Source of the DNA: Ruminococcus albus 7 = DSM 20455
Lineage (GTDB): Bacteria; Bacillota; Clostridia; Oscillospirales; Ruminococcaceae
NCBI RefSeq assembly: GCF_000179635.2
Contig: NC_014833.1
Coordinates: forward strand, 660,001 to 692,000
DNA length: 32,000 nt
Direction: 5' to 3'
Below the pieces are notes generated by a model. It did no database searches and was not told the origin of the DNA. It saw only the letters and a program-made list of their open reading frames with translations. Below are positions 11,976 to 31,710 of this stretch, piece by piece. Made by a program: the position numbers and the translations under genes. Position 1 is the first letter of the stretch, and every line of letters begins with the position of its first letter.

Positions 11976-12057
11976 GAGTTTTTTGATAATATTAAAAGTT
12001 ACGACACAATTTTTAGCATCAGACACAAAGGGTTCAGGATACAATGGAGGTACAGAT

Positions 12058-13512
12058 ATGGAAAGATCAAAGGTAATATTCGGTAATAAGATGTCAGATT
12101 CAGCTTACAGGAAGGCAGTGAAGGGGAAGGAGAAGTTCATTAAAAAGTACGGCAGTGATATGGACAGGGTATACCACCTGAGTGCTGCCCCCGCACCTGC
12201 AATAGGCGATATCCTCGGGGTGCAGGAACTGAAGATATCGGGAAAAACAGGTGTTACATTCAATGACAGGAGCCTTGTGATCGGAAATATACGCATGGGC
12301 TTCGGGCACTACCGCATATCTATGGCGATAGCATCTGCGGCAAGATCTATGGGGTATGATCCCTATTGGTTCGATCTGTGCTCATTCAGCGATACCACCT
12401 GCGGCAAGATCATAGCAGGTCAGAATCAGCTGTATTCACTGGGCTCGCGTATATCTCAGAAGTCTGCGCTGTTCAACAAGCTTGTATGGGAGCCTCTCAA
12501 CAGCGAGGGATTCCGTCAGCTGACCTACAACTGCTCCGACCAGAAGACTGCGGAGCTCATGACCCCTGTGTTCCGAGATCTTCCGAAGGATATACCCTAT
12601 GTTGCCACACACGTATGGCCGTCACAGGCGGCAGTTCATGCAGGGCTGACCCATGTTGTCAATGCTGTTCCCGATAACTGGCCTATGGCGCTGCATTTGT
12701 CGGAGGGTGCTGTACATACTGTACAGACTCCGTCATCCTATCTTGGTTATCGTGCTCTCCGCGGCATGGACAAGCACCGCTTGTTGAAGCCCATGCCAAA
12801 GGATTCCATAGTGTATACCGGTCATTATATCGACCATGAGCTGGTTAGCAATATTGAGTACGATTGTGCAAAGCGTATCGAGAGGGTGCGAAACGGAAAA
12901 GCCGTCCGCTGGATGATGTCAGTCGGCGGTGCGGGCGCACAGAAGGATATATTCGTTTCACTGATACGCAGGATGCTCCCCGAGATAAAAAAAGGAAAGG
13001 CAGTGCTTTTCATAAACGTTGGGGATCACAAAAAAGTCTGGGAGCAGCTAAGGACCGAGCTGCCGCATATTGCTGAGTATGTTACCGAGCATATAGATGA
13101 TCTTACGGAAACAGCAAGGTTTGCGGCTGATGCAATAGACGGTGAGGTGAGCGGTATACACGTTTTCTGTCACAGCGATATATTTGCGGCGGTATACTCC
13201 ACCAACCTGCTAATGCGCTGCTCTGATGTGCTTATCACCAAGCCCAGCGAGCTTGCATTCTATCCCATACCCAAACTGATGATAAAGCGGGTGGGCGGTC
13301 ACGAAGCCTGGGGCGCTGTGCGTGCAGCGGAGGTCGGTGACGGTACCTATGAATGCACTTCTACCTCAGAGATCTGCGGAATGATGAAGCTTATACAGCA
13401 TAACGGTGATATCATTGAAAAGATGTGTGGGAATATCATGACCGCTAAGAATGCAGGTATATATGACGGTGCATATAAGGTGGTCAGACTGGCAGTTCTT
13501 GGCAATAAATAG
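12058..13512 (+). CDS. Uncharacterised GT-B-fold-like protein (weak resemblance to the MGDG-synthase/UgtP GT28 family)
   Basis: The ATG at 12058 follows GGAGG, whereas the track's TTG at 11983 has no RBS. GNIRMGFGHYRISMAIASAA resembles the G-x-G-H loop of GT28 enzymes. SVGGAGAQ and ITKPSELAFYP resemble the C-terminal nucleotide-sugar binding half. The function call is tentative. Confidence 0.55.
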   Translation: MERSKVIFGNKMSDSAYRKAVKGKEKFIKKYGSDMDRVYHLSAAPAPAIGDILGVQELKISGKTGVTFNDRSLVIGNIRMGFGHYRISMAIASAARSMGYDPYWFDLCSFSDTTCGKIIAGQNQLYSLGSRISQKSALFNKLVWEPLNSEGFRQLTYNCSDQKTAELMTPVFRDLPKDIPYVATHVWPSQAAVHAGLTHVVNAVPDNWPMALHLSEGAVHTVQTPSSYLGYRALRGMDKHRLLKPMPKDSIVYTGHYIDHELVSNIEYDCAKRIERVRNGKAVRWMMSVGGAGAQKDIFVSLIRRMLPEIKKGKAVLFINVGDHKKVWEQLRTELPHIAEYVTEHIDDLTETARFAADAIDGEVSGIHVFCHSDIFAAVYSTNLLMRCSDVLITKPSELAFYPIPKLMIKRVGGHEAWGAVRAAEVGDGTYECTSTSEICGMMKLIQHNGDIIEKMCGNIMTAKNAGIYDGAYKVVRLAVLGNK

Positions 13513-20304: not shown

Positions 20305-20952
20305 CTATATTTCGGCTTCGTTGAGCACCCATTCCATCAGTTCTTCATACTCACTTCTACTTTTTCCGTTTTGAGCTTCTACTCTTTCCTTGTGTTCTTT
20401 GTCTCTGTAATATAATCCGATCGCTACATCTGCTGTTACCAGCATATTGTCTTTAAGAAGGTAAAAGCTATGAATGGATGCATCTAAAACTCCTGTTTCC
20501 CAGCCGGAAATAAAGTTGAACGGTTCCTCGTCATCGGTGTCTTTGCCGAAAATATAGTCGTATATCCCTTTTGTATCCTCTTCTTTTTTATATATGGAAC
20601 TTTTACGTTCAAATACTTTACGTGCGGTTGCAGGTGAGTCTAACAGCATATATTCTAACCGCTGATAATTGTTCTGCGAAGTTGCCGGATTTGAAGGATA
20701 ACATTGCGTGTATTCTATGTCATATATCTGGTCCGTCCTTACGATCATGGTAACACCGGTAGTGTGTTCGTCGATCTCTTTTCTTGGAGTCAGGTTAGTG
20801 CCGGTCAGGCGTTCAATGTCCTCTTCGGTGTACACTCTATTGCTTTCTGAATCCCTGTATTTCAGAAAGTCTATCTTTGAAGGGATGAGTGACACCATTG
20901 TGATAACCAGTATAGTTATCACCGATGTTTCAAGGATCTTGTTTATATTCAT
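20305..20952 (-). CDS. Hypothetical membrane-anchored protein (one N-terminal TM helix, ~185-aa extracytoplasmic domain)
   Basis: N-terminal helix ILETSVITILVITMVSLIP. AAAAGGACAG RBS. It is tightly packed between ktrB and ktrA on the same strand. No recognisable motifs. Confidence 0.65.
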   Translation of the reverse strand: MNINKILETSVITILVITMVSLIPSKIDFLKYRDSESNRVYTEEDIERLTGTNLTPRKEIDEHTTGVTMIVRTDQIYDIEYTQCYPSNPATSQNNYQRLEYMLLDSPATARKVFERKSSIYKKEEDTKGIYDYIFGKDTDDEEPFNFISGWETGVLDASIHSFYLLKDNMLVTADVAIGLYYRDKEHKERVEAQNGKSRSEYEELMEWVLNEAEI

Positions 20953-22822: not shown

Positions 22823-23866
22823 TTGAAAAGGATCATATCCACAGTACTGTGTGTATCGGTTCTGTTATGTATGACAGGTTGTGAAAAGAAAAAAGAATCT
22901 GCCGTTGCTTTTGATCCTGCTCCGCCATTCTCGGCACTTACTGAGATCAAGGAAGGCAGAAAGGACGTATATCTCATAATCAAGGATCTTGAAAGCAGCT
23001 ATTGGCGTATAGTGGTAGAAGGTGCAAAGGCAGGCAGTGTCGATTTCGACTGCAACCTGTATTACAGCGGCTGTAATAATGAGAGCGACTGGGAATCCCA
23101 GAGCAGACTTATGGATGAAGCAGTTACCGCAGGTGCTGATGCTATACTCCTATCACCTAATGATTCCGTAAAGCTTTCGGAAAAGATAGATGAAGTGTAC
23201 TCAAAGGGCGTAAGGATAGTACTTGTTGATACAGCAGCCAATACCGAGCACTATGATGTGTGCTATATGACTGATAACCTGATGGCAGGTCAGCTTGCTT
23301 CGGAAGAGATGATGAGGCAGCTTCGCAGCAAGGGATATTCCGATGATGAGAAGCTGGAAATAGGTGTGCAGGTAATAACCACCACATCCCAGACCATCAA
23401 TGAACGTCTTGCAGGATTCCTTCAGTACTGGGCAAGATATGCCCCTGATAACTGGACGATCATATCCGATATAAAGTATAATGACGGTGATATCGAAAAA
23501 GGCTATGAATGTGCGGAAGAACTTCTCAGGGATTACCCTGCTATGAAAGGTGTTTTCGGGACCAATAACAGCTCTGCCTTTACGCTTGCATCCGTACTTA
23601 AAAAACATAACAGGAAGGATATCGCCCTGGTGGGATTTGACTATTCCGCTGAGATAGCCGAGCTTATAGAAGACGGTGATTATGCTGTATCTACTGTACT
23701 GCAGAGACAGTATGAAATGGCTTATGAGGGTATTAAGACAGCCCTTGAACTTACAGAAGGCAAAGAGATCGAACAGAAATTTGTCGATACTGGTATAGTT
23801 GTTGTAAACGCAGAAAACTACAATGATCCTGATGTTCTGGAAGCACTGGATCATAACCGAGGATAA
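22823..23866 (+). CDS. Sugar-binding lipoprotein, periplasmic-binding-protein type 1 (RbsB/LacI-like fold)
   Basis: Lipobox VLLCMTGC. PBP1-like blocks ADAILLSPNDS, GVRIVLVDT, AMKGVFGTNNSSA and ALVGFDYS. TTG start after a GGGGGG RBS. Confidence 0.8.
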   Translation: MKRIISTVLCVSVLLCMTGCEKKKESAVAFDPAPPFSALTEIKEGRKDVYLIIKDLESSYWRIVVEGAKAGSVDFDCNLYYSGCNNESDWESQSRLMDEAVTAGADAILLSPNDSVKLSEKIDEVYSKGVRIVLVDTAANTEHYDVCYMTDNLMAGQLASEEMMRQLRSKGYSDDEKLEIGVQVITTTSQTINERLAGFLQYWARYAPDNWTIISDIKYNDGDIEKGYECAEELLRDYPAMKGVFGTNNSSAFTLASVLKKHNRKDIALVGFDYSAEIAELIEDGDYAVSTVLQRQYEMAYEGIKTALELTEGKEIEQKFVDTGIVVVNAENYNDPDVLEALDHNRG

Positions 23867-23867
23867 T

Positions 23868-25367
23868 ATGAATAAAACGATCACGGAGACAGGTGAACTT
23901 AAAAGCACAGGTTCTTTTATCAGGATGATGATCGTATACTTTACAGTATGTCTTTTGGGACTGGCTGTGATGATAACTGCTATCAATTCACTGATGAGGG
24001 AGCATGATAAAAAGCTCACAGGACAGATCTGCGACCTGGTCGCAGAAAAGATGAACAATTCAATAAAATATATGACGACCTCAGCGCAGAATATGTCTGC
24101 CATGCTGACAGCGCAGAAGCACAGTGATATACAGCTGCTTTATAACGAGTTCAGCGATCTTAAGGGTGACGGATATATAAGTATGGGACTTATTGACAGC
24201 AGGGACAAGGTGTATGCCACAGATACCGAGCTTGATGAGTTCAGGAAATGGAGACTTCTCGAGATCGCCCGCAAGGCCGATCCTGTGTCCATATCCTCAC
24301 CTTACCGTTCGGGATTTTCAGGTGAACCTGTCATAACGCTGTTTGCCGAATTCAGATACGGCAAAGAAGAGAAAGGCTGCCTGTTCCTGACATATCCGCT
24401 GAAAGAGATACAGAATATGGCATCTACCGAAACTCTTGCGGATGATACGGAGATATGGCTGATGGATTCGGAGTCCGATAATGTTATACAGTGTGCAGGA
24501 AAAAACAAGTACGCTATAGGCAGCTGGGCAAATGCCATGCTTATCTTTGACAGCAAGATCGAGAAAAAAGATGTTGTTGCATTTGAAAAATGGAAGGAAT
24601 CCATGCACAATGATGAAAGGGCTACGGGTGTGGTATACAGGATAGGAGATGTCACCTATTCACAGGTATATGCAGATATAAATTTCATGCATGGCTGGAA
24701 CGTAGTTGTAAGGATGCCGAGCAGTGCTATGTCATCTGCGATGGAGCGTTTCAGGAGTATAGTGATACTGTATATAGTACTTCTTCTGTTAGCTACTATT
24801 GTAATGTTCCTGCTTACCCACAGACGTGATGTGGCAGACAGAGAGATACTCAAAAATCTTTCCATACATGATCCCCTTACGGATGTAATGAACAGACGTG
24901 CTCTGGATGTTGCGGCAAATAATTATTTCCAGCGTATGCTCAGACCAGAATGTGCAGTGCTGTTCATAGATGTTGATTACTTCAAGCAGGTAAATGACCG
25001 TTACGGACATGATGCAGGTGACAAGGTGCTCAAGGAGTTTGCTGCACTGCTGAAAGATCTGTTCGGTGATATCGGACTTATATCGCGGTACGGCGGTGAT
25101 GAGTTCCTTGTGTTCATAAAGAATGCGGATAAGCAGAAGATAGAAGAAAAGCTTGCAGAACTGACATTAAGGGCGCATGAGATCCGTCCTATCACCCGAA
25201 GGGAAGATGATTATTACAGTTTGAGCTGCAGCTGCGGCGGTGCTATGTGCTCGGATAATGCAAAGAACTTTGAACAGCTCAAAGCCTGCGCGGATGCCGC
25301 ACTATATGAAGTCAAGGATCATGGCAGAGACGGCTATGGCTGGTATGAGAGCTCGGGCAGCAGATAA
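23868..25367 (+). CDS. Membrane diguanylate cyclase: TM, ~280-aa extracytoplasmic sensor (Cache-like), TM, GGDEF domain
   Basis: Intact active site RYGGDEFLVF, with upstream DVDYFKQVNDRYGHDAGD. Two TM helices. The ATG at 23868 follows GAGGA and lies 1 nt after the binding-protein stop. I did not see an RxxD I-site at the usual position. Confidence 0.85.
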   Translation: MNKTITETGELKSTGSFIRMMIVYFTVCLLGLAVMITAINSLMREHDKKLTGQICDLVAEKMNNSIKYMTTSAQNMSAMLTAQKHSDIQLLYNEFSDLKGDGYISMGLIDSRDKVYATDTELDEFRKWRLLEIARKADPVSISSPYRSGFSGEPVITLFAEFRYGKEEKGCLFLTYPLKEIQNMASTETLADDTEIWLMDSESDNVIQCAGKNKYAIGSWANAMLIFDSKIEKKDVVAFEKWKESMHNDERATGVVYRIGDVTYSQVYADINFMHGWNVVVRMPSSAMSSAMERFRSIVILYIVLLLLATIVMFLLTHRRDVADREILKNLSIHDPLTDVMNRRALDVAANNYFQRMLRPECAVLFIDVDYFKQVNDRYGHDAGDKVLKEFAALLKDLFGDIGLISRYGGDEFLVFIKNADKQKIEEKLAELTLRAHEIRPITRREDDYYSLSCSCGGAMCSDNAKNFEQLKACADAALYEVKDHGRDGYGWYESSGSR

Positions 25368-25380
25368 TAGGATCCTCAAA

Positions 25381-25405
25381 ACGGCGCATTGATGCGCCGT
25401 TTTTT
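25381..25405 (+). terminator. Rho-independent terminator of the binding-protein/GGDEF operon
   Basis: ACGGCGCA-ttga-TGCGCCGT followed by TTTTT. An A-run lies upstream, so it may act in both directions. Confidence 0.75.
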
Positions 25406-25419
25406 ATGTTTTCAAATCG

Positions 25420-25448
25420 TTGACATTTTCTTAAAATAGTGGTATAAT
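25420..25448 (+). promoter_or_regulatory. Consensus sigma-A promoter (extended -10) dedicated to the giant helicase gene
   Basis: TTGACA (25420-25425), a 17-nt spacer, then TGgTATAAT with the -10 at 25443-25448. A GGAAGGAG RBS precedes the ATG at 25494. Confidence 0.6.
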
Positions 25449-25493
25449 CTTAACTAAGTATAAATAAATTGTATCCTTGGAAGGAGCAGCTTT

Positions 25494-28400
25494 ATGGAAC
25501 AGCTAGTAACATTCAGCGCAGCCATGACAGCGCATATCAATTATGCCATGCAGCAGAATGCTGTACCTGTCATACGCAGTATAATAATGACCAATATTTC
25601 GGACAGAAAACTCAAAAATGTATTTTTAAGACTTACCTTCGACCCTGATTTTGCTGAGGGGTATGAGTCTGCTGTTATAGACCTTGAACCTGATACCCCC
25701 GCTGAGATATCGCCTGTAGGGGCTGTTATGCGTCCGGAGGTCTTTCTTGCCATTGACGGGAACTCCGAGGGCTATGTACGCATAGAAGCTGTTACACTCA
25801 CAGATGAGGGTGAAGTCATTCTCGGCAGAGAGGTCAAAAAACTTGAACTGCTGGCAAGGGATACGTGGACAGGTGTGAACTTCATGCCTGAACTGGCTGC
25901 AGCGTTCATAACCCCTAATCATCCCGCGGTACGCGAGGTGCTGTCAAAGGCTTCGGCGATAATGGCAAAGCAGGGAGGAGAGCCTTCGTTCACAGGATAT
26001 CTGACACGTAATCCGAATATCGTCAGACAGCAGATAAATGCCATATATACGGCTATATCGAATGAGAACATCACCTGTATACAGCCTGCCTCAGGCTTTG
26101 ATAAGGTACAGAAAGTCACCATGCCGAATGAGGTGCTTTCAGGAAGAAGCGGTACATCCCTTGATCTTGCACTGCTGTTCTGTTCGTGCTTTGAAGCCGC
26201 AGGTCTTAACAGTCTGCTCGTTATGACTTCCAACCATGCTATAGCGGGGTGCTGGCTTGAAGAGGATTCTTTTCCCGACAGCCTGCAGTACGATATGACC
26301 GCACTTACAAAGCGTATGGCAAACGGTGTGGATGAGATATCACTTATCGAATGTACGGATATTTGTACAGAAAATGATGGTGAGGCATCAGCTGTGCACG
26401 CAGCTGATGTCCTGGCAAAGGCGGCTGATTTCTGTTTTGCCATAGATGTGAGCCGTACCCGCAGCAGCGGTATAAAGCCGGTACCTTCATTTGAACCCGA
26501 CGGGAACGGTGGGTTCAGGATCGTGGATCACGGTCTGCCTGAAAGGCGTGATACTCCTGCTGACGGTGTTTCACCGGATAATATCCCTGATGTCGGCAGT
26601 CCGCGGGAGATAACCAAGCAGATGGTCTGGGAGAGAAAGCTCCTTGACCTCAGCCTGCGCAACAGCCTGCTTAACTTCCGCCCCACCTCATCGAATGTGC
26701 AGCTTATGGTGAATGATCTCGCATCACTTGAAGACGAGATAGCTGCAGATGAAACTTTCAGGATAATGCCTGTCCCCTCTGATCTCAAAATGGAGATGGA
26801 CGAGAATAAGATATATGAAACAGATACTCAGCGCGAGAAGATATCTGAGATAGCAGCGGGAGAATTCCGCTCAAAGCGCCTGCGCACCTTTATGACCGAA
26901 GCCGAACTTGAAAAGACCATGAAGAAACTGCACCGTATGGCAAAGGTCAGCATGGAAGAAAATGGTGCAAACACTGTGTATCTTGCACTCGGTTTCCTGC
27001 GCTGGTATGAAACCGACAAGAGCGAGCGTCCGCGCTATGCGCCCCTTGTTCTGGTACCTGTGGATATCATCAAAAAGGTTCAGGACAAGAGTTTCTCCAT
27101 ACGCGTCCGCGATGAGGATACCCAGGTAAATATTACTTTGCTGGAAATGCTCAGGCAGTCCTTCGGCATAGATATAAAAGGTCTTGACCCTGTCCCGGTG
27201 GATGAGAGCGGTGTGGATATCCCTCAGATATTCAGCATTGTACGCAAGGGCGTTATGTCCCGAAGCCGCTGGGACGTTGACGAATACGCATTTATCGGAC
27301 AGTTCAGCTTCAACAGGTTTATAATGTGGAACGATATCCGCAACCGTGCAGATGAACTGGCACAGAACAAAGTTGTTGCAAGCCTTATCTCGGGAAGAAC
27401 AGAATGGGAGGGCAGAGATATCACCGTTTCGCCCAATGATCTTGATGAGATAGCCCCATCGGATATGGCAGTGCCTGTTGCGGCAGACTCATCTCAGCTT
27501 GCAGCGGTGGTAGCATCAGGTCAGGGTCAGAGCTTCGTTCTCCACGGTCCTCCCGGCACAGGCAAGTCCCAGACCATAACCAATATGATAGCCAACGCTC
27601 TCTATCACGGACGAACTGTCCTGTTCGTAGCGGAGAAGATGGCTGCGCTGTCGGTGGTTGAAAAAAGGCTGGCAAAGATAGGTCTCGGACCTTTCTGTAT
27701 AGAACTGCATTCCAATAAATCCCAGAAGCGTGCTGTTCTTGATCAGCTGAATGAAACGCTCAACGTTGGCAAGATCAAAAAGCCCGAAGATTATCAGGCT
27801 CAGGCGGATAAGCTGAAAGCTCTCCGTGCAGAGCTGAATGGTACCATGGACGAGATACATAAAGTACGCAATTACGGGATCTCCATGTACGATGCAGCTG
27901 TGCGCTACGAACAGAACAGAGCATTTGACGGCAGGATGTCGTTCACGGATGCCCAGATAAGCGCCATGACCTCCGATACCTATACTGTATGGAAAGAACT
28001 GGCAGAAAGCCTTGCCAACCTCGGCGGACAGTTCGGTGAGATAGGCGATACTCCCCTCAGATACTGCCGCCTTACTGAGTGCGGCATATCCACAGCGGAT
28101 GATTTCCGCACAAAGCTTACAGAACTTGATACTGAACTCACAAAGCTGGAACAGGGCGGCGTTTCAGCCCTTGCGGGCATAGATGAACCAACCTTTGAAC
28201 AGCTGATGAGCCTTATGGATATATGTGCTGCTGTCGGGAATGACGAGGGATTCGTTCTGCCTGCAGTGCTTACAGGCAATAAATGGGATATGTCAAGACC
28301 CGCGATAGAAAAGACTATGGCTTCGCTGAACAGCCTGCAAAGCTGTAAAGCGGAGATATCTGAAATATTCGAGGATGCCGTTTTCGGTTACGATGCCGCA

Positions 28401-31241
28401 AAGGCACAGACCGAGTGGAAGACGGTACAGGCTAAATGGTTCATACCCAAGTATTTCGGCAGCAAAAAACTGGTAAGGGAACTTGCGGTTTACGCAAAGA
28501 AAGCTGATGCTGTCACCAAAGAGAATATCACCGATTATTATACCAAGCTGATAAACGCATCACAGCTTAAAGCCGAAATCGAAAACGGTCAGACGGCTTC
28601 GCAGGAGATATTCGGTGCACTATGGCAGGGTGAGGGTACGCAGTATAACACACTATCAGCCTCACTTAATAAGTCCCTGAACGTGCGTGCTAAGCTCGAT
28701 TCAGCTCCCCTTGATGCAGAACAGAAAGCTTCTGTTGCTGCAAAACTCGGTGCAGGTGAACTTCCTGCATACAAAAAAGACAGTCTGGCAAAAGTACTGG
28801 ATGAACTTGAAAAGAACTACAAAACAGACACCATGAGCCTTGCTAATGGTACTCTGAACGATGCACGCGGACGTATCTCCGCACTTATTGCAGAACTTCA
28901 CCGCCTGAAAGATTGGTCTGTCATAATGAGTTTCATTGATAAGCTGGAAAAAGCAGATGCCGCCAATATAGCGAAAGCTTATCTGGGCGGAAAAACGGAC
29001 AGCAGCGAGCTTATCCCTGCTTTTGACTGCGCAGTGGCAAAAGCCGAAGTCAGCCTCACTGTAAGAAACAGCAAAGCGCTGACCGCATTCACAGGCACGT
29101 TGTTTGAAGATACTGTACGCCGCCTTAATGATGCCCATGAAAGCTTCAAAAAGCTGACTATACAGCAGCTGGCGGCAGAGCTTTCTGCAAAAGTACCTGC
29201 GCCCGGTGACGGAGCAAAAAGCAGTGAGCTTGGCATTCTTCAGCGTGCTATCAAGAGCGGCGGCAGGATGATGAGCATACGAAAACTCTTTGACAGCATA
29301 CCGAATCTGCTGCGAAGGATATGCCCCGTCATGCTCATGTCACCTATCTCAGTGGCGCAGTATATCGACCCTTCATATCCCAAGTTCGACCTTGTTATAT
29401 TCGATGAGGCTTCTCAGCTGCCCACCTGCGAAGCTGTAGGCGCTATTGCACGCGGTGAGAACGTCATAGTTGTAGGTGACCCCAAGCAGATGCCGCCTAC
29501 CAGCTTTTTCTCCTCAAATCAGGTGGACGAGGAAAACTACGATAAGGAAGACCTTGAAAGTGTGCTGGACGACTGTCTGGCTCTCTCCATGCCCCAGAAG
29601 CATCTGCTGTGGCACTACCGTTCCCGTCACGAGAGCCTTATTGCGTACAGCAATTCAAAGTATTACGAAAACAAGCTTTATACTTTCCCCTCGCCTGACG
29701 ATCAGATAAGCGAGGTGAGCTGGGTGAACGTTGAGGGCTTCTATGACAAGGGAAGCACCAAGACAAACCGCGCCGAAGCGGAAGCTGTTACAGCCGAGAT
29801 ATGCCGACGTCTGCGAGATCCTCAGCTGATAAAGCATTCCATAGGTGTGGTAACTTTCAGTCTGCCTCAGCAGAATCTGGTGGAGGATGTCCTGGCAGAC
29901 GCTTTCCGCGCAGAACCACAGCTTGAAGAACTGGCAAATTCCATGTATGAACCTATACTCATCAAGAACCTGGAAAATGTTCAGGGCGATGAGCGTGATG
30001 TTATACTATTTTCTATCGGCTACGGTCCGGATAAGGAAGGCAAAGTCAGCATGAACTTCGGTCCTCTCAACCGTGACGGCGGCTGGAGAAGACTCAACGT
30101 TGCCATATCCCGTGCAAGAGAGAAAATGATAGTATACTCTGTTATACGTCCCGAGATGATAGACCTGTCCCGAACCCGTTCCGAGGGCGTTGACGGTCTT
30201 AAAGGCTTTCTTGAATTCGCTGCAAAGGGAAGGGCGGCACTTCCTGTGCGTGCAGGCAGCGGAAGTCTTGGTACGGGCTTTGAAAAGCTCGTTGCAGCCG
30301 AACTTGAACAGCGGGGCTACAGGGTGAAGTGCAGCGTGGGCTGCTCCGATTATAAAGTAGATGTAGCAGTAGCAGATCCCGAGGACGAAAATACCTATAT
30401 CATCGGCATCAACTGCTGCGGAAGAAAATACTATGAGAACGGTACTGCCTATGACCGTACAATATCTCAGCCCGGTGTGCTGAAAGGTCTTGGCTGGAAC
30501 GTTGTGAGCGTTTATATACTCGACTGGCTCACGGATAAAAACAAGTGTATGACCTCTATAATAAACGCGATAAATGAAGCTATAGAAGCTAAGAACGCTC
30601 CTGCTCCCGCTGAAGAAGAGCCTCCCAAAAAGGCTGAGCCGCTGCAGTTTGAGCGCGAAGAGGTTTCCTCACTTGCCGATGAATGCGCTGAATATGTTCC
30701 GTTCATACCGCCTGTTCAGGGCAAGTCTGAGGACTTCAACGAGCTTGCCTCCGATAAGATAGCAGCCTGCATAGATACCGTCCTTGAAGCCGAAGCTCCG
30801 ATCAGCAGGGAAGTGCTTCAGAAGCGCATACTGACAGCCTGGGGCGTGGCAAGGCAGAGCAATCTCACTAAAGCAGCATTTGATATAGCTCTTGTTAAAT
30901 CAAACGGAAAGTCTGTGGTTTCGGGTGATAACGAATTTATATGGCGCCGTGATCAGGATCCTGCTGCCTATGATATCTGCAGGGCAAAGTGCGATCACGA
31001 TTCACGACGTGATATCAAGGATATCCCACCCGAAGAGCTTGGCAGCGGTATCATACTTATACTGTCAAGACAGATAGCTATGCAGCGTGATGATCTTCTG
31101 CGTGAAACTGCTCATCTGTTTGGCTTTACAAGGGTGACTCCTGCACTGGAGGTCGCAGTATCTCTTGGAATAAAGGCGGCAAAGCAGCGTGGCAGGTTAG
31201 CTTTTGCCGAGGATGGTAAGGTGACTTATGTTGAAGAATAA
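25494..31241 (+). CDS. 1,915-aa DUF4011-type Upf1-like SF1 helicase with an N-terminal transglutaminase-like region, a degenerate restriction-endonuclease-like fold and a DUF3320-like C-terminus
   Basis: DUF4011-like block VWERKLLDLSLRNSLLNFRP from aa 378, plus NTVYLALGFLRWYE and YAPLVLVPV. Walker A GPPGTGKS (aa 685-692, nt 27546-27569). Walker B VIFDEASQ (aa 1301-1308, nt 29394-29417). Motif III VVGDPKQMPP. Motif V VQGDERDVILFS. Motif VI RRLNVAISRAREK (around aa 1532). Nuclease-like fold from aa ~1596 to ~1690. C-terminal ISREVLQKRILTAWGV. Confidence 0.9.
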   Translation: MEQLVTFSAAMTAHINYAMQQNAVPVIRSIIMTNISDRKLKNVFLRLTFDPDFAEGYESAVIDLEPDTPAEISPVGAVMRPEVFLAIDGNSEGYVRIEAVTLTDEGEVILGREVKKLELLARDTWTGVNFMPELAAAFITPNHPAVREVLSKASAIMAKQGGEPSFTGYLTRNPNIVRQQINAIYTAISNENITCIQPASGFDKVQKVTMPNEVLSGRSGTSLDLALLFCSCFEAAGLNSLLVMTSNHAIAGCWLEEDSFPDSLQYDMTALTKRMANGVDEISLIECTDICTENDGEASAVHAADVLAKAADFCFAIDVSRTRSSGIKPVPSFEPDGNGGFRIVDHGLPERRDTPADGVSPDNIPDVGSPREITKQMVWERKLLDLSLRNSLLNFRPTSSNVQLMVNDLASLEDEIAADETFRIMPVPSDLKMEMDENKIYETDTQREKISEIAAGEFRSKRLRTFMTEAELEKTMKKLHRMAKVSMEENGANTVYLALGFLRWYETDKSERPRYAPLVLVPVDIIKKVQDKSFSIRVRDEDTQVNITLLEMLRQSFGIDIKGLDPVPVDESGVDIPQIFSIVRKGVMSRSRWDVDEYAFIGQFSFNRFIMWNDIRNRADELAQNKVVASLISGRTEWEGRDITVSPNDLDEIAPSDMAVPVAADSSQLAAVVASGQGQSFVLHGPPGTGKSQTITNMIANALYHGRTVLFVAEKMAALSVVEKRLAKIGLGPFCIELHSNKSQKRAVLDQLNETLNVGKIKKPEDYQAQADKLKALRAELNGTMDEIHKVRNYGISMYDAAVRYEQNRAFDGRMSFTDAQISAMTSDTYTVWKELAESLANLGGQFGEIGDTPLRYCRLTECGISTADDFRTKLTELDTELTKLEQGGVSALAGIDEPTFEQLMSLMDICAAVGNDEGFVLPAVLTGNKWDMSRPAIEKTMASLNSLQSCKAEISEIFEDAVFGYDAAKAQTEWKTVQAKWFIPKYFGSKKLVRELAVYAKKADAVTKENITDYYTKLINASQLKAEIENGQTASQEIFGALWQGEGTQYNTLSASLNKSLNVRAKLDSAPLDAEQKASVAAKLGAGELPAYKKDSLAKVLDELEKNYKTDTMSLANGTLNDARGRISALIAELHRLKDWSVIMSFIDKLEKADAANIAKAYLGGKTDSSELIPAFDCAVAKAEVSLTVRNSKALTAFTGTLFEDTVRRLNDAHESFKKLTIQQLAAELSAKVPAPGDGAKSSELGILQRAIKSGGRMMSIRKLFDSIPNLLRRICPVMLMSPISVAQYIDPSYPKFDLVIFDEASQLPTCEAVGAIARGENVIVVGDPKQMPPTSFFSSNQVDEENYDKEDLESVLDDCLALSMPQKHLLWHYRSRHESLIAYSNSKYYENKLYTFPSPDDQISEVSWVNVEGFYDKGSTKTNRAEAEAVTAEICRRLRDPQLIKHSIGVVTFSLPQQNLVEDVLADAFRAEPQLEELANSMYEPILIKNLENVQGDERDVILFSIGYGPDKEGKVSMNFGPLNRDGGWRRLNVAISRAREKMIVYSVIRPEMIDLSRTRSEGVDGLKGFLEFAAKGRAALPVRAGSGSLGTGFEKLVAAELEQRGYRVKCSVGCSDYKVDVAVADPEDENTYIIGINCCGRKYYENGTAYDRTISQPGVLKGLGWNVVSVYILDWLTDKNKCMTSIINAINEAIEAKNAPAPAEEEPPKKAEPLQFEREEVSSLADECAEYVPFIPPVQGKSEDFNELASDKIAACIDTVLEAEAPISREVLQKRILTAWGVARQSNLTKAAFDIALVKSNGKSVVSGDNEFIWRRDQDPAAYDICRAKCDHDSRRDIKDIPPEELGSGIILILSRQIAMQRDDLLRETAHLFGFTRVTPALEVAVSLGIKAAKQRGRLAFAEDGKVTYVEE

Positions 31242-31710
31242 AGCATTGATAAAGCTGGGCGCGTTGCTGCTCCTGGCAGCTGCCATAAGAACGAAACTCT
31301 GCGTATACAGGGTTACTGGCAGCAGTATGGCACCCTCACTGCATGACGGTGATCTTGTGATATGTATGAGATCGCACCGCCCCGGAAAGGGCAGCATAGC
31401 GCTGCTTCACCGCGGCAGCAGCCTGATGATAAAACGTGTGATAGCTATAGGCGGAGAGCATCTGCGTATCGATGGCACAGGCAGGGTCTATGTGGATTCT
31501 GTCCTTTTGAAAGAACCATATCTGCGCGGAAGGCGCACACCTGATATACCGCTGTCACTAACTGTGCCGAATGGATGTGTATTCGTCATGGGCGATAACA
31601 GGGCTGACTCCGTTGACAGCCGTTCACCGCTGATAGGATTTCTTCATCACAGCCGTACATTTGCCGTTGCATTTGCTGTGCTTTCCCCGAAAGGGCTTGA
31701 TCTTCTGTGA
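31228..31710 (+). CDS. lepB: Signal peptidase I
   Basis: Catalytic Ser box GSSMAPSL. Lys box IKRVIAIGGE. GDNRADSVDSR box. N-terminal TM anchor. The ATG overlaps the helicase 3' end by 14 nt. Confidence 0.85.
   Translation: MLKNKALIKLGALLLLAAAIRTKLCVYRVTGSSMAPSLHDGDLVICMRSHRPGKGSIALLHRGSSLMIKRVIAIGGEHLRIDGTGRVYVDSVLLKEPYLRGRRTPDIPLSLTVPNGCVFVMGDNRADSVDSRSPLIGFLHHSRTFAVAFAVLSPKGLDLL

Follow-up and report, generated by a model that had tools for sequence, protein, structure and literature searches.

A probably nuclease-disabled member of the ProA anti-phage helicase family in Ruminococcus albus 7

We analysed a stretch of 32,000 nucleotides from the chromosome of Ruminococcus albus 7 (DSM 20455; contig NC_014833.1, positions 660,001 to 692,000), hereafter called the window, and describe one long open reading frame (ORF) in it, a coding sequence at 25494-31241 on the + strand, which specifies a protein of 1,915 amino acids. 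This gene is the R. albus 7 ortholog of ProA, a large single-gene family of around 1,900-2,300 residues that is annotated by NCBI as anti-phage, and its product is probably a helicase-driven, nuclease-disabled version of ProA. We lean towards the view that it acts as a constitutive surveillance helicase in which the Vsr-like endonuclease domain no longer cuts, and that protection would come from remodelling, blocking, or handover of the target. From its family membership, we infer a defence role for the gene within R. albus.

An exact-sequence look-up found the protein to be identical to WP_013497351.1 / ADU21160.1. Its gene lies on the chromosome of 3.69 Mb, and the deposited annotation, "DUF3320 domain-containing protein / putative DNA helicase", can now be corrected to a member of the named anti-phage family ProA. 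An earlier note on this DNA had proposed that the gene encodes a single-polypeptide sensor/effector acting on foreign or aberrant nucleic acid. The proposal gains from matches to the NCBIfam ProA and PADLOC PDC-S37 models, but the nuclease of the polypeptide is without the canonical Glu, Asp, and His. The gene is a new member of an already known defence family, and the core idea of the earlier note is thus not new. Coordinates below are those of the window, and all parts of the gene lie on the + strand.

Family assignment

The protein scores 2,133.1 bits on the NCBIfam equivalog model NF058533.1 ("anti-phage protein ProA"), whose cutoff is 1,500, and the alignment joins residues 16-1880 to the whole of the model (positions 1-1903 of 1903). 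On the same model, scores of 2,077-2,224 bits were obtained for homologues from Bacteroides finegoldii, from a conjugative IncF plasmid of Klebsiella variicola, and from other Clostridia, and thus the window protein is a typical member by score. It also resembles the family in its length class, in an architecture of seven parts that includes the N-terminal module, and in its organisation as a solitary gene. A second match, to the PADLOC candidate PDC-S37 (model PDLC05009; 1,224 bits, E = 0), joins residues 378-1904 to positions 12-1540 of the 1,550 in the model. The matched part comprises DUF4011, the helicase, the endonuclease fold, and DUF3320, whereas the N-terminal 377 residues are left uncovered. 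PDC entries are candidates derived from association with defence islands and are not validated systems.

ProA is a sister family of Hhe, which is called Gao_Hhe in DefenseFinder. On the Hhe model NF042953.1, the window protein reaches 758 bits, far under the cutoff of 2,000. Both families contain a core of DUF4011, a Upf1-like superfamily 1B (SF1B) helicase, and a Vsr-like endonuclease, which can be aligned over residues ~460-1690 at ~34% identity, and Hhe is likewise a single gene, annotated as anti-phage on Klebsiella plasmids. In contrast to ProA, Hhe has neither the beta-sandwich nor the transglutaminase-like module, and in contrast to the window protein, its nuclease motif is complete. 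The N-terminal module is the signature that separates ProA from Hhe, and it likewise falls outside the PDC-S37 model. With Hhe and ProA both named as anti-phage families, the earlier note is outdated in treating the DUF4011/DUF3320 architecture as one of unassigned function.

More distant relatives resemble the protein only in part. By sequence, the nearest solved structures are those of IGHMBP2 (1.4e-7), Sen1 (1.2e-6), and Upf1 (2.6e-3), which confirms the Upf1-like SF1B assignment, and the IGHMBP2 family model TIGR00376 gives a partial match. The search of solved structures returned no ProA or Hhe structure, only these distant Upf1-like helicases, which have the helicase motifs in common with the window protein; the similarity is confined to the RecA core (E = 1e-7 at best), and the flanking domains are entirely different. 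The anti-phage systems Mokosh and Nhi follow the same general logic, in that an SF1 helicase is joined to a nuclease. The PADLOC models MkoA and MkoC, however, match only the RecA2 region, partially and with ~90 bits; the window protein has no PLD or other Mokosh-type nuclease, so that only the helicase core is common to both, and no Mokosh partner gene is found in the window. Nhi is not among the PADLOC matches of the protein.

Full-text literature searching did not find the publication behind the name ProA. DefenseFinder includes a system named "Prometheus" (PMC12390725, PMC12629846, preprint 10.64898/2026.02.13.705702), whose link to ProA could not be shown.

Domain architecture and catalytic residues

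From the N to the C terminus, the protein consists of a beta-sandwich, a transglutaminase-like core, DUF4011, an SF1B helicase with a variable insert of 440 residues, a Vsr-like fold, and predicted tandem winged helices. The DUF4011 domain (residues 382-553; 26637-27152) is a full-length match to the Pfam model with E = 3.3e-49, and the helicase is matched by both AAA_11 and AAA_12. With MTES_1575 and DUF3320, which are described below, all the domains that the earlier note had placed before and after the helicase core were recovered with Pfam profiles.

The N-terminal part of SF1B RecA1 lies at 27459-27893 and carries the Walker A motif GPPGTGKS (residues 685-692; 27546-27569), with Lys691 as the Walker A lysine. 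The C-terminal part of RecA1 and RecA2 follow at residues 1241-1560 (29214-30173) and contain DEASQ (1304-1308), GDPKQMPP (1328-1335), QGDERD (1497-1502), and NVAISRAR (1535-1542). Each of these motifs, listed already in the earlier note together with the lysine, is present exactly once. All the key SF1B residues are in place, namely the Walker A Lys, the DE of motif II, the Q of motif V, and the R of motif VI. In an alignment of 121 close relatives, mostly from Ruminococcus, the catalytic positions that we checked (motifs I, II, V, and VI) show little or no variation, and the Walker A Lys is found in 121 of 121. Judging by these residues, the helicase core is the only fully intact catalytic centre of the window protein.

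Between the two parts of RecA1, at the position of Upf1-type accessory domains, there is a poorly conserved insert of ~440 residues (801-1240; 27894-29213). The gap between the matched helicase blocks is ~570 residues long, compared with ~112 in IGHMBP2, which corresponds to ~460 extra residues between motifs I/Ia and II. The insert is the least conserved part of the protein, with conservation values of 0.25-0.55.

Residues 1-380, on which the earlier note was silent, form a folded beta-sandwich and transglutaminase-like module. In the AlphaFold2 model of the first 372 residues (predicted local distance difference test score, pLDDT, 84.6; predicted template modelling score, pTM, 0.82), a beta-sandwich is followed by an alpha/beta core. 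The beta-sandwich comprises residues 1-120 (25494-25853; pLDDT ~85-95), and the putative transglutaminase-like, papain-fold core comprises residues ~130-335 (25881-26498), as delimited with Pfam matches of homologues and the AlphaFold2 model. Residue 222 is modelled at the N terminus of a helix and His248 directly before the strand 249-254, a placement that corresponds to the papain/transglutaminase arrangement. Transglut_core in Pfam matched 19 of 20 homologous N-terminal segments, with 1.5e-5 at best and only 0.047 for the segment of the window protein, and DUF553 matched 18 of the 20. Foldseek mainly returned generic Ig-like beta-sandwiches for the N-terminal model, among them the N-terminal sandwich of factor XIII, and thus the transglutaminase assignment rests mainly on the consistency of sub-threshold Pfam matches and on the Cys/His geometry. 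Among 1.84 billion representatives, a profile of the module found 1,725 clusters (50% identity; E <= 1e-30); the best 150 of the 1,725 are mostly proteins of 1.9-2.3 thousand residues with the module at or near the N terminus.

The Cys-His pair of this module is nearly invariant, with Cys in 118 and His in 119 of the 121 relatives. The window protein differs from the family in having Ser at the position of Cys222 (codon TCC, 26157-26159, a single-base change), while His248 is retained. The same Ser222 is found in a relative that is 99% identical to the window protein; R. albus SY3 has Asn instead of the His of the pair, and one further relative has neither Cys nor His. In total, the Cys or the His has been lost three times independently (window + P0001, P0003, P0011), at least twice within the R. 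albus clade.

At the other end of the protein, a Vsr-like restriction-endonuclease fold with a degenerate active site (residues 1596-1693; 30279-30572) was recognised by the Pfam model MTES_1575 (2.5e-23). It is followed by a C-terminal tail at residues 1745-1915 (30726-31238), within which Pfam places DUF3320 (residues 1752-1787, 4e-8). The model of the C-terminal part has a pLDDT of 80.8 overall and ~90 in the tail. In a structure search of this predicted model, the endonuclease fold resembled I-Bth0305I (3r3p) with a template modelling (TM) score of 0.73, normalised to the target, and the best matches of the tail were the ESCRT-II chain 3cuq_B (172 aligned columns) and the winged-helix B domains of cullins. 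The tail is accordingly a predicted pair of tandem winged-helix domains.

It is in the endonuclease fold that the window protein departs most clearly from its relatives. Klebsiella Hhe and Klebsiella ProA both read D...ECDG..YH...RDRD (in Klebsiella Hhe, the stretch is FIDLAV...IECDGAAYH), while the window protein reads KVDVAV...INCCGRKYY...AYDRT, so that the canonical D-E-D-H appears as D-N-C-Y. Asp1623 is retained; Asn1640, Cys1642, and Tyr1647 stand in place of the canonical Glu, Asp, and His, and Thr1656 in place of the trailing acidic residue. The Glu is present in only 1 of the 121 close relatives, and the second position is Asp or Glu in 35 of them. For a broader view, we counted the residues in an anchored domain alignment of 82 broad ProA representatives, of which 12 have the Glu, 76 the second Asp, 61 the trailing acidic residue, and 9 the full D-E-D-H set. 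With so few complete sets, most ProA proteins are already non-canonical. The R. albus protein, without the second Asp and the trailing acidic residue, has lost two further positions beyond the typical ProA, and the only acidic residues that it keeps are Asp1623 and Asp1654.

These residues bear directly on the alternative that the protein is a classical helicase-nuclease effector, in which the helicase tracks foreign DNA and its own C-terminal domain cleaves it. This was the model of the earlier note and is the assumed mode of action of Hhe. The MTES_1575 domain is clearly present, with a fold like that of the I-Bth0305I catalytic domain and under purifying selection, and most of the broad ProA representatives retain two Asp residues and an RDR(E/D) sequence. 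In the window protein, however, three of the four canonical residues and the trailing acidic residue are replaced, and among the close relatives the Glu is absent from 120 of 121 and an acidic second position is confined to a minority. We consider cleavage by this polypeptide itself to be unlikely.

Inheritance, selection, and genomic context

To follow the gene within the R. albus clade, we scanned GTDB species representatives, with the adjacent TrkH gene as an anchor and tblastn to find the other genes. The window and all 8 of the informative clade genomes share the ProA site; the eight are KH2T6, AR67, R. albus 8, SY3, and the metagenome-assembled genomes (MAGs) RUI259, RGIG4311, RUG10798, and CAMHRZ (the last of which is truncated). 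The gene order is ALS-TrkA-TrkH-(PBP-GGDEF)-ProA, where PBP denotes a periplasmic binding protein. Identity to the window ProA ranges from 71 to 84%, and ordering the genomes by it gives the ranking that the ALS and TrkH genes of the flank also give, which fits vertical descent. On these comparisons, the gene has been passed on vertically within the R. albus clade, always at a single chromosomal position, and behaves as a core gene.

Selection was estimated within the clade from the ratio of nonsynonymous to synonymous substitution rates (dN/dS), which is 0.00-0.05 for the helicase, 0.05-0.22 for the transglutaminase-like core, and ~0.15 for the insert at 801-1240. Every ProA domain is under purifying selection, and all eight orthologs are intact, with 1,913-1,927 codons. 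The domains are still needed, but probably for something other than their ancestral chemistry.

The control signals upstream of the gene are conserved as well. An intrinsic terminator of the upstream GGDEF gene (25378-25403, + strand; an 11-pair stem with 6 GC pairs, then a T run) shields the ProA promoter from read-through. The promoter itself, a sigma-70-type TTGACA-17-TGnTATAAT sequence with an extended -10 element (25420-25448), matches at 12 of 12 positions and is the sole match of this quality within the 10 kb scanned. Across all 8 R. albus-clade orthologs, TTGACA and TATAAT are invariant, and the TG of the extended -10 element is retained. A ribosome-binding site (GGAAGGAG, 25479-25486) lies 7 nt 5' of the ATG, and a site of the A/GGAGGAG type is conserved among the clade orthologs. 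In the 5' untranslated region, directly after the -10 hexamer, a block with the sequence TTAACTAAGTATAAA (25449-25475, + strand) is conserved in most of the 8 orthologs, and the spacer around it differs in length by ~45 nt between them; this block may be a regulatory element or simply the region of the transcript start.

Fixed housekeeping synteny, which the earlier note had named as evidence against its own proposal, is found in every R. albus-clade genome examined, but contexts differ outside the clade. ProA lies between a histidine operon and MurT/GatD in one case (L003), adjoins large serine recombinases in three (L004, L005, L031), and is found among unrelated housekeeping genes in two (L030, L033). 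A 6.7-Mb metagenomic genome (L006, 1-25829) carries a ProA of 47% identity in a dense defence island, together with genes for NERD/HRDC, RNase_T-BRCT, an AAA_11/12 helicase with DUF2726, McrBC, an SMC-like ATPase, and CTD1/MComp1 conflict-system genes. In K. variicola, the conjugative IncF plasmid pLY161 carries ProA beside AbiJ-NTD4 and insertion sequence (IS) elements. Compared with these copies on a mobile element or in a defence island, the window copy stands in fixed chromosomal synteny. No neighbour of ProA recurs among eight unrelated contexts, and thus the reading as a single-gene system holds, as does the earlier statement that no gene nearby is an obvious partner.

We found no close relative of ProA among 2.9 million viral contigs, and a search with the family profile yielded only one weak match. 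The unannotated record MT836269 ("Bacteriophage sp.") contains a full-length ProA homologue with 40.1% identity to the query, compared with 40.3% for that of B. finegoldii, and may be bacterial DNA. The gene is essentially not carried by phages. A megablast search of E. coli genomes with the Klebsiella ProA gene gave no match. In the B. finegoldii record itself ("plasmid 29"), a gene of the reverse-transcriptase family lies directly after the ProA homologue, in convergent orientation (L026, 13837-14967); as the record also carries rpsA and glutamine synthetase, it looks chromosomal.

The stable position in the clade is at the centre of another alternative, that of a domesticated housekeeping helicase, in which an ancestral defence gene is kept for DNA repair or for the surveillance of R-loops or transcripts and not for immunity. 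Fixed synteny and eroded active sites make domestication a serious possibility. In each of the nine clade genomes examined, the gene stands at an identical position and co-diverges with the metabolic and ion-transport genes around it; its strong promoter is conserved, every domain is under purifying selection, and both accessory catalytic centres are eroded around an intact helicase, with the three independent losses in the transglutaminase-like pair. In P. aeruginosa, a DUF4011 gene has likewise been reported to be a core flank gene of the defence hotspot cDHS1 in all isolates (PMC10250203). On the other hand, the family is patchy, its context changes between clades, and members of it occur on conjugative plasmids and within a defence island. 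Evolution is fastest in the insert and the terminal modules, as in immune sensors, and core, vertically inherited defence genes do exist. Weighing the two sides, we give loss of the immune function a low probability.

In this connection, Prometheus has been described as vertically inherited in Lokiarchaeum strains (preprint 10.64898/2026.02.13.705702). The core-like behaviour of Prometheus and of the P. aeruginosa DUF4011 gene resembles the situation in R. albus; that Prometheus and ProA are the same is not established.

Proposed mechanism and neighbouring genes

The surveillance helicase that we favour could work as follows. Given its strong and conserved promoter, the protein would be constitutively present. 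Its intact Upf1-like motor would load on foreign or aberrant nucleic acid and translocate 5'->3' with ATP. Recognising the target, or regulating the motor, could fall to the winged helices, the N-terminal module, and the variable insert. Canonical members of the family would follow this with a cut by the Vsr-like domain. The R. albus copy has lost three of the four canonical nuclease residues and has Ser instead of Cys as the transglutaminase-like nucleophile, and thus protection would most likely not come from cleavage by the window polypeptide. It could instead come from ATP-driven remodelling or blocking of the replication or expression intermediates of the invader, or from handover to another nuclease.

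Several points weigh against this proposal. Purifying selection still acts on the endonuclease fold within the R. albus clade (dN/dS of 0.02-0.15), and the 121 relatives show no variation at Asp1623 and Arg1655 and almost none at Asp1654 and Lys1621 (K/R), residues that could conceivably form an unconventional active site and that would also suit a helicase-nuclease. Ser is a possible nucleophile in some papain-fold enzymes. The polarity and the substrate of the helicase are extrapolated from Upf1-like relatives, and "anti-phage" is a label given by curators together with the family context, as we found no experiment on any ProA protein in the literature. Fixed, core-like synteny is unusual for defence genes. 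Furthermore, the window contains no defence island, integrase, or other defence gene. The possibility of a defence island in the window was rejected, since the ORFs other than ProA are metabolic, transport, or regulatory and have no specific PADLOC matches.

More speculatively, and with doubts that remain considerable, the R. albus lineage might have disarmed a ProA immune helicase and fixed it as a core gene, with the helicase, the folds, and the promoter under purifying selection. If so, the protein would be a natural defence helicase without its own nuclease, that is, a pure translocase-type restriction factor, or would serve in cellular nucleic-acid quality control. Should the helicase on its own still protect, this would be informative about how proteins of the Hhe/ProA type work, and nature would have supplied a clean separation-of-function allele for experiments. 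The one aspect that may be worth experiments is that this lineage has lost catalytic residues in a copy that it inherits vertically. The comparison itself adds to what is known of the family, with a family-wide N-terminal transglutaminase-like module carrying a near-invariant Cys-His pair, a nuclease that is non-canonical in most members, and a vertically inherited copy in rumen Ruminococcus in which both accessory active sites are eroded.

At its 3' end, the gene is less isolated than at its 5' end. The earlier note had described an autonomous transcription unit, and the promoter and the upstream terminator agree with this, but the end of ProA overlaps a gene for an S26 signal peptidase I (160 residues; 31228-31710, + strand) by 14 nt. 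The ATG of the peptidase gene at 31228 lies within the last ProA codons (ATGTTGAAGAATAA), and no terminator was detected between the two genes or after the S26 gene. The same overlap occurs in SY3, KH2T6, AR67, and MAG RUI259 (5 of the 8 clade genomes counted, with the window). In R. albus 8 and MAG RGIG4311, the peptidase is missing after ProA, with a terminator-like hairpin instead, and in RUG10798, a distant copy is found ~0.9 kb from ProA. The peptidase diverges faster than ProA in the clade (55-58% identity vs 81-84%).

A two-gene module, in which the peptidase might, for instance, process or activate a component, is suggested by the shared 14-nt overlap without a terminator but is very improbable, given the missing or displaced copies, the absence of the peptidase next to ProA in every context examined outside the clade, its faster divergence, its lack of a PADLOC match, and its membrane-anchored, secretory nature, compared with a ProA without signal peptide features. 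The S26 gene is probably co-transcribed with ProA, most likely as a passenger that has no functional partnership with it; as an obligatory partner, it was rejected on phyletic grounds.

The flanks agree with the cyclic di-GMP module and lepB of the earlier note, with the periplasmic-binding-protein/GGDEF pair upstream and the S26 signal peptidase downstream of ProA. The PBP gene and the gene for a dCache/GGDEF diguanylate cyclase (22823-25367, + strand) overlap by 44 nt. The divergence of this pair (55-76% identity) far outpaces that of the adjacent Trk and ALS genes (85-98%), and the pair was not detected in MAG RUG10798, where ProA lies ~450 nt from TrkH. Farther upstream, an ORF of 215 residues (20305-20952, - strand) lies between trkH and trkA and has no Pfam or PADLOC match. 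This slot is variable in the clade, being empty in SY3 and RUI259 and occupied by unrelated or only 39%-identical sequence in other strains. Finally, the gene at 11983-13512 (+ strand), whose neighbour is a TetR regulator gene transcribed divergently, encodes a protein of 509 residues made up of two uncharacterised domains, DUF6937 and DUF6938, each matched very strongly by Pfam.

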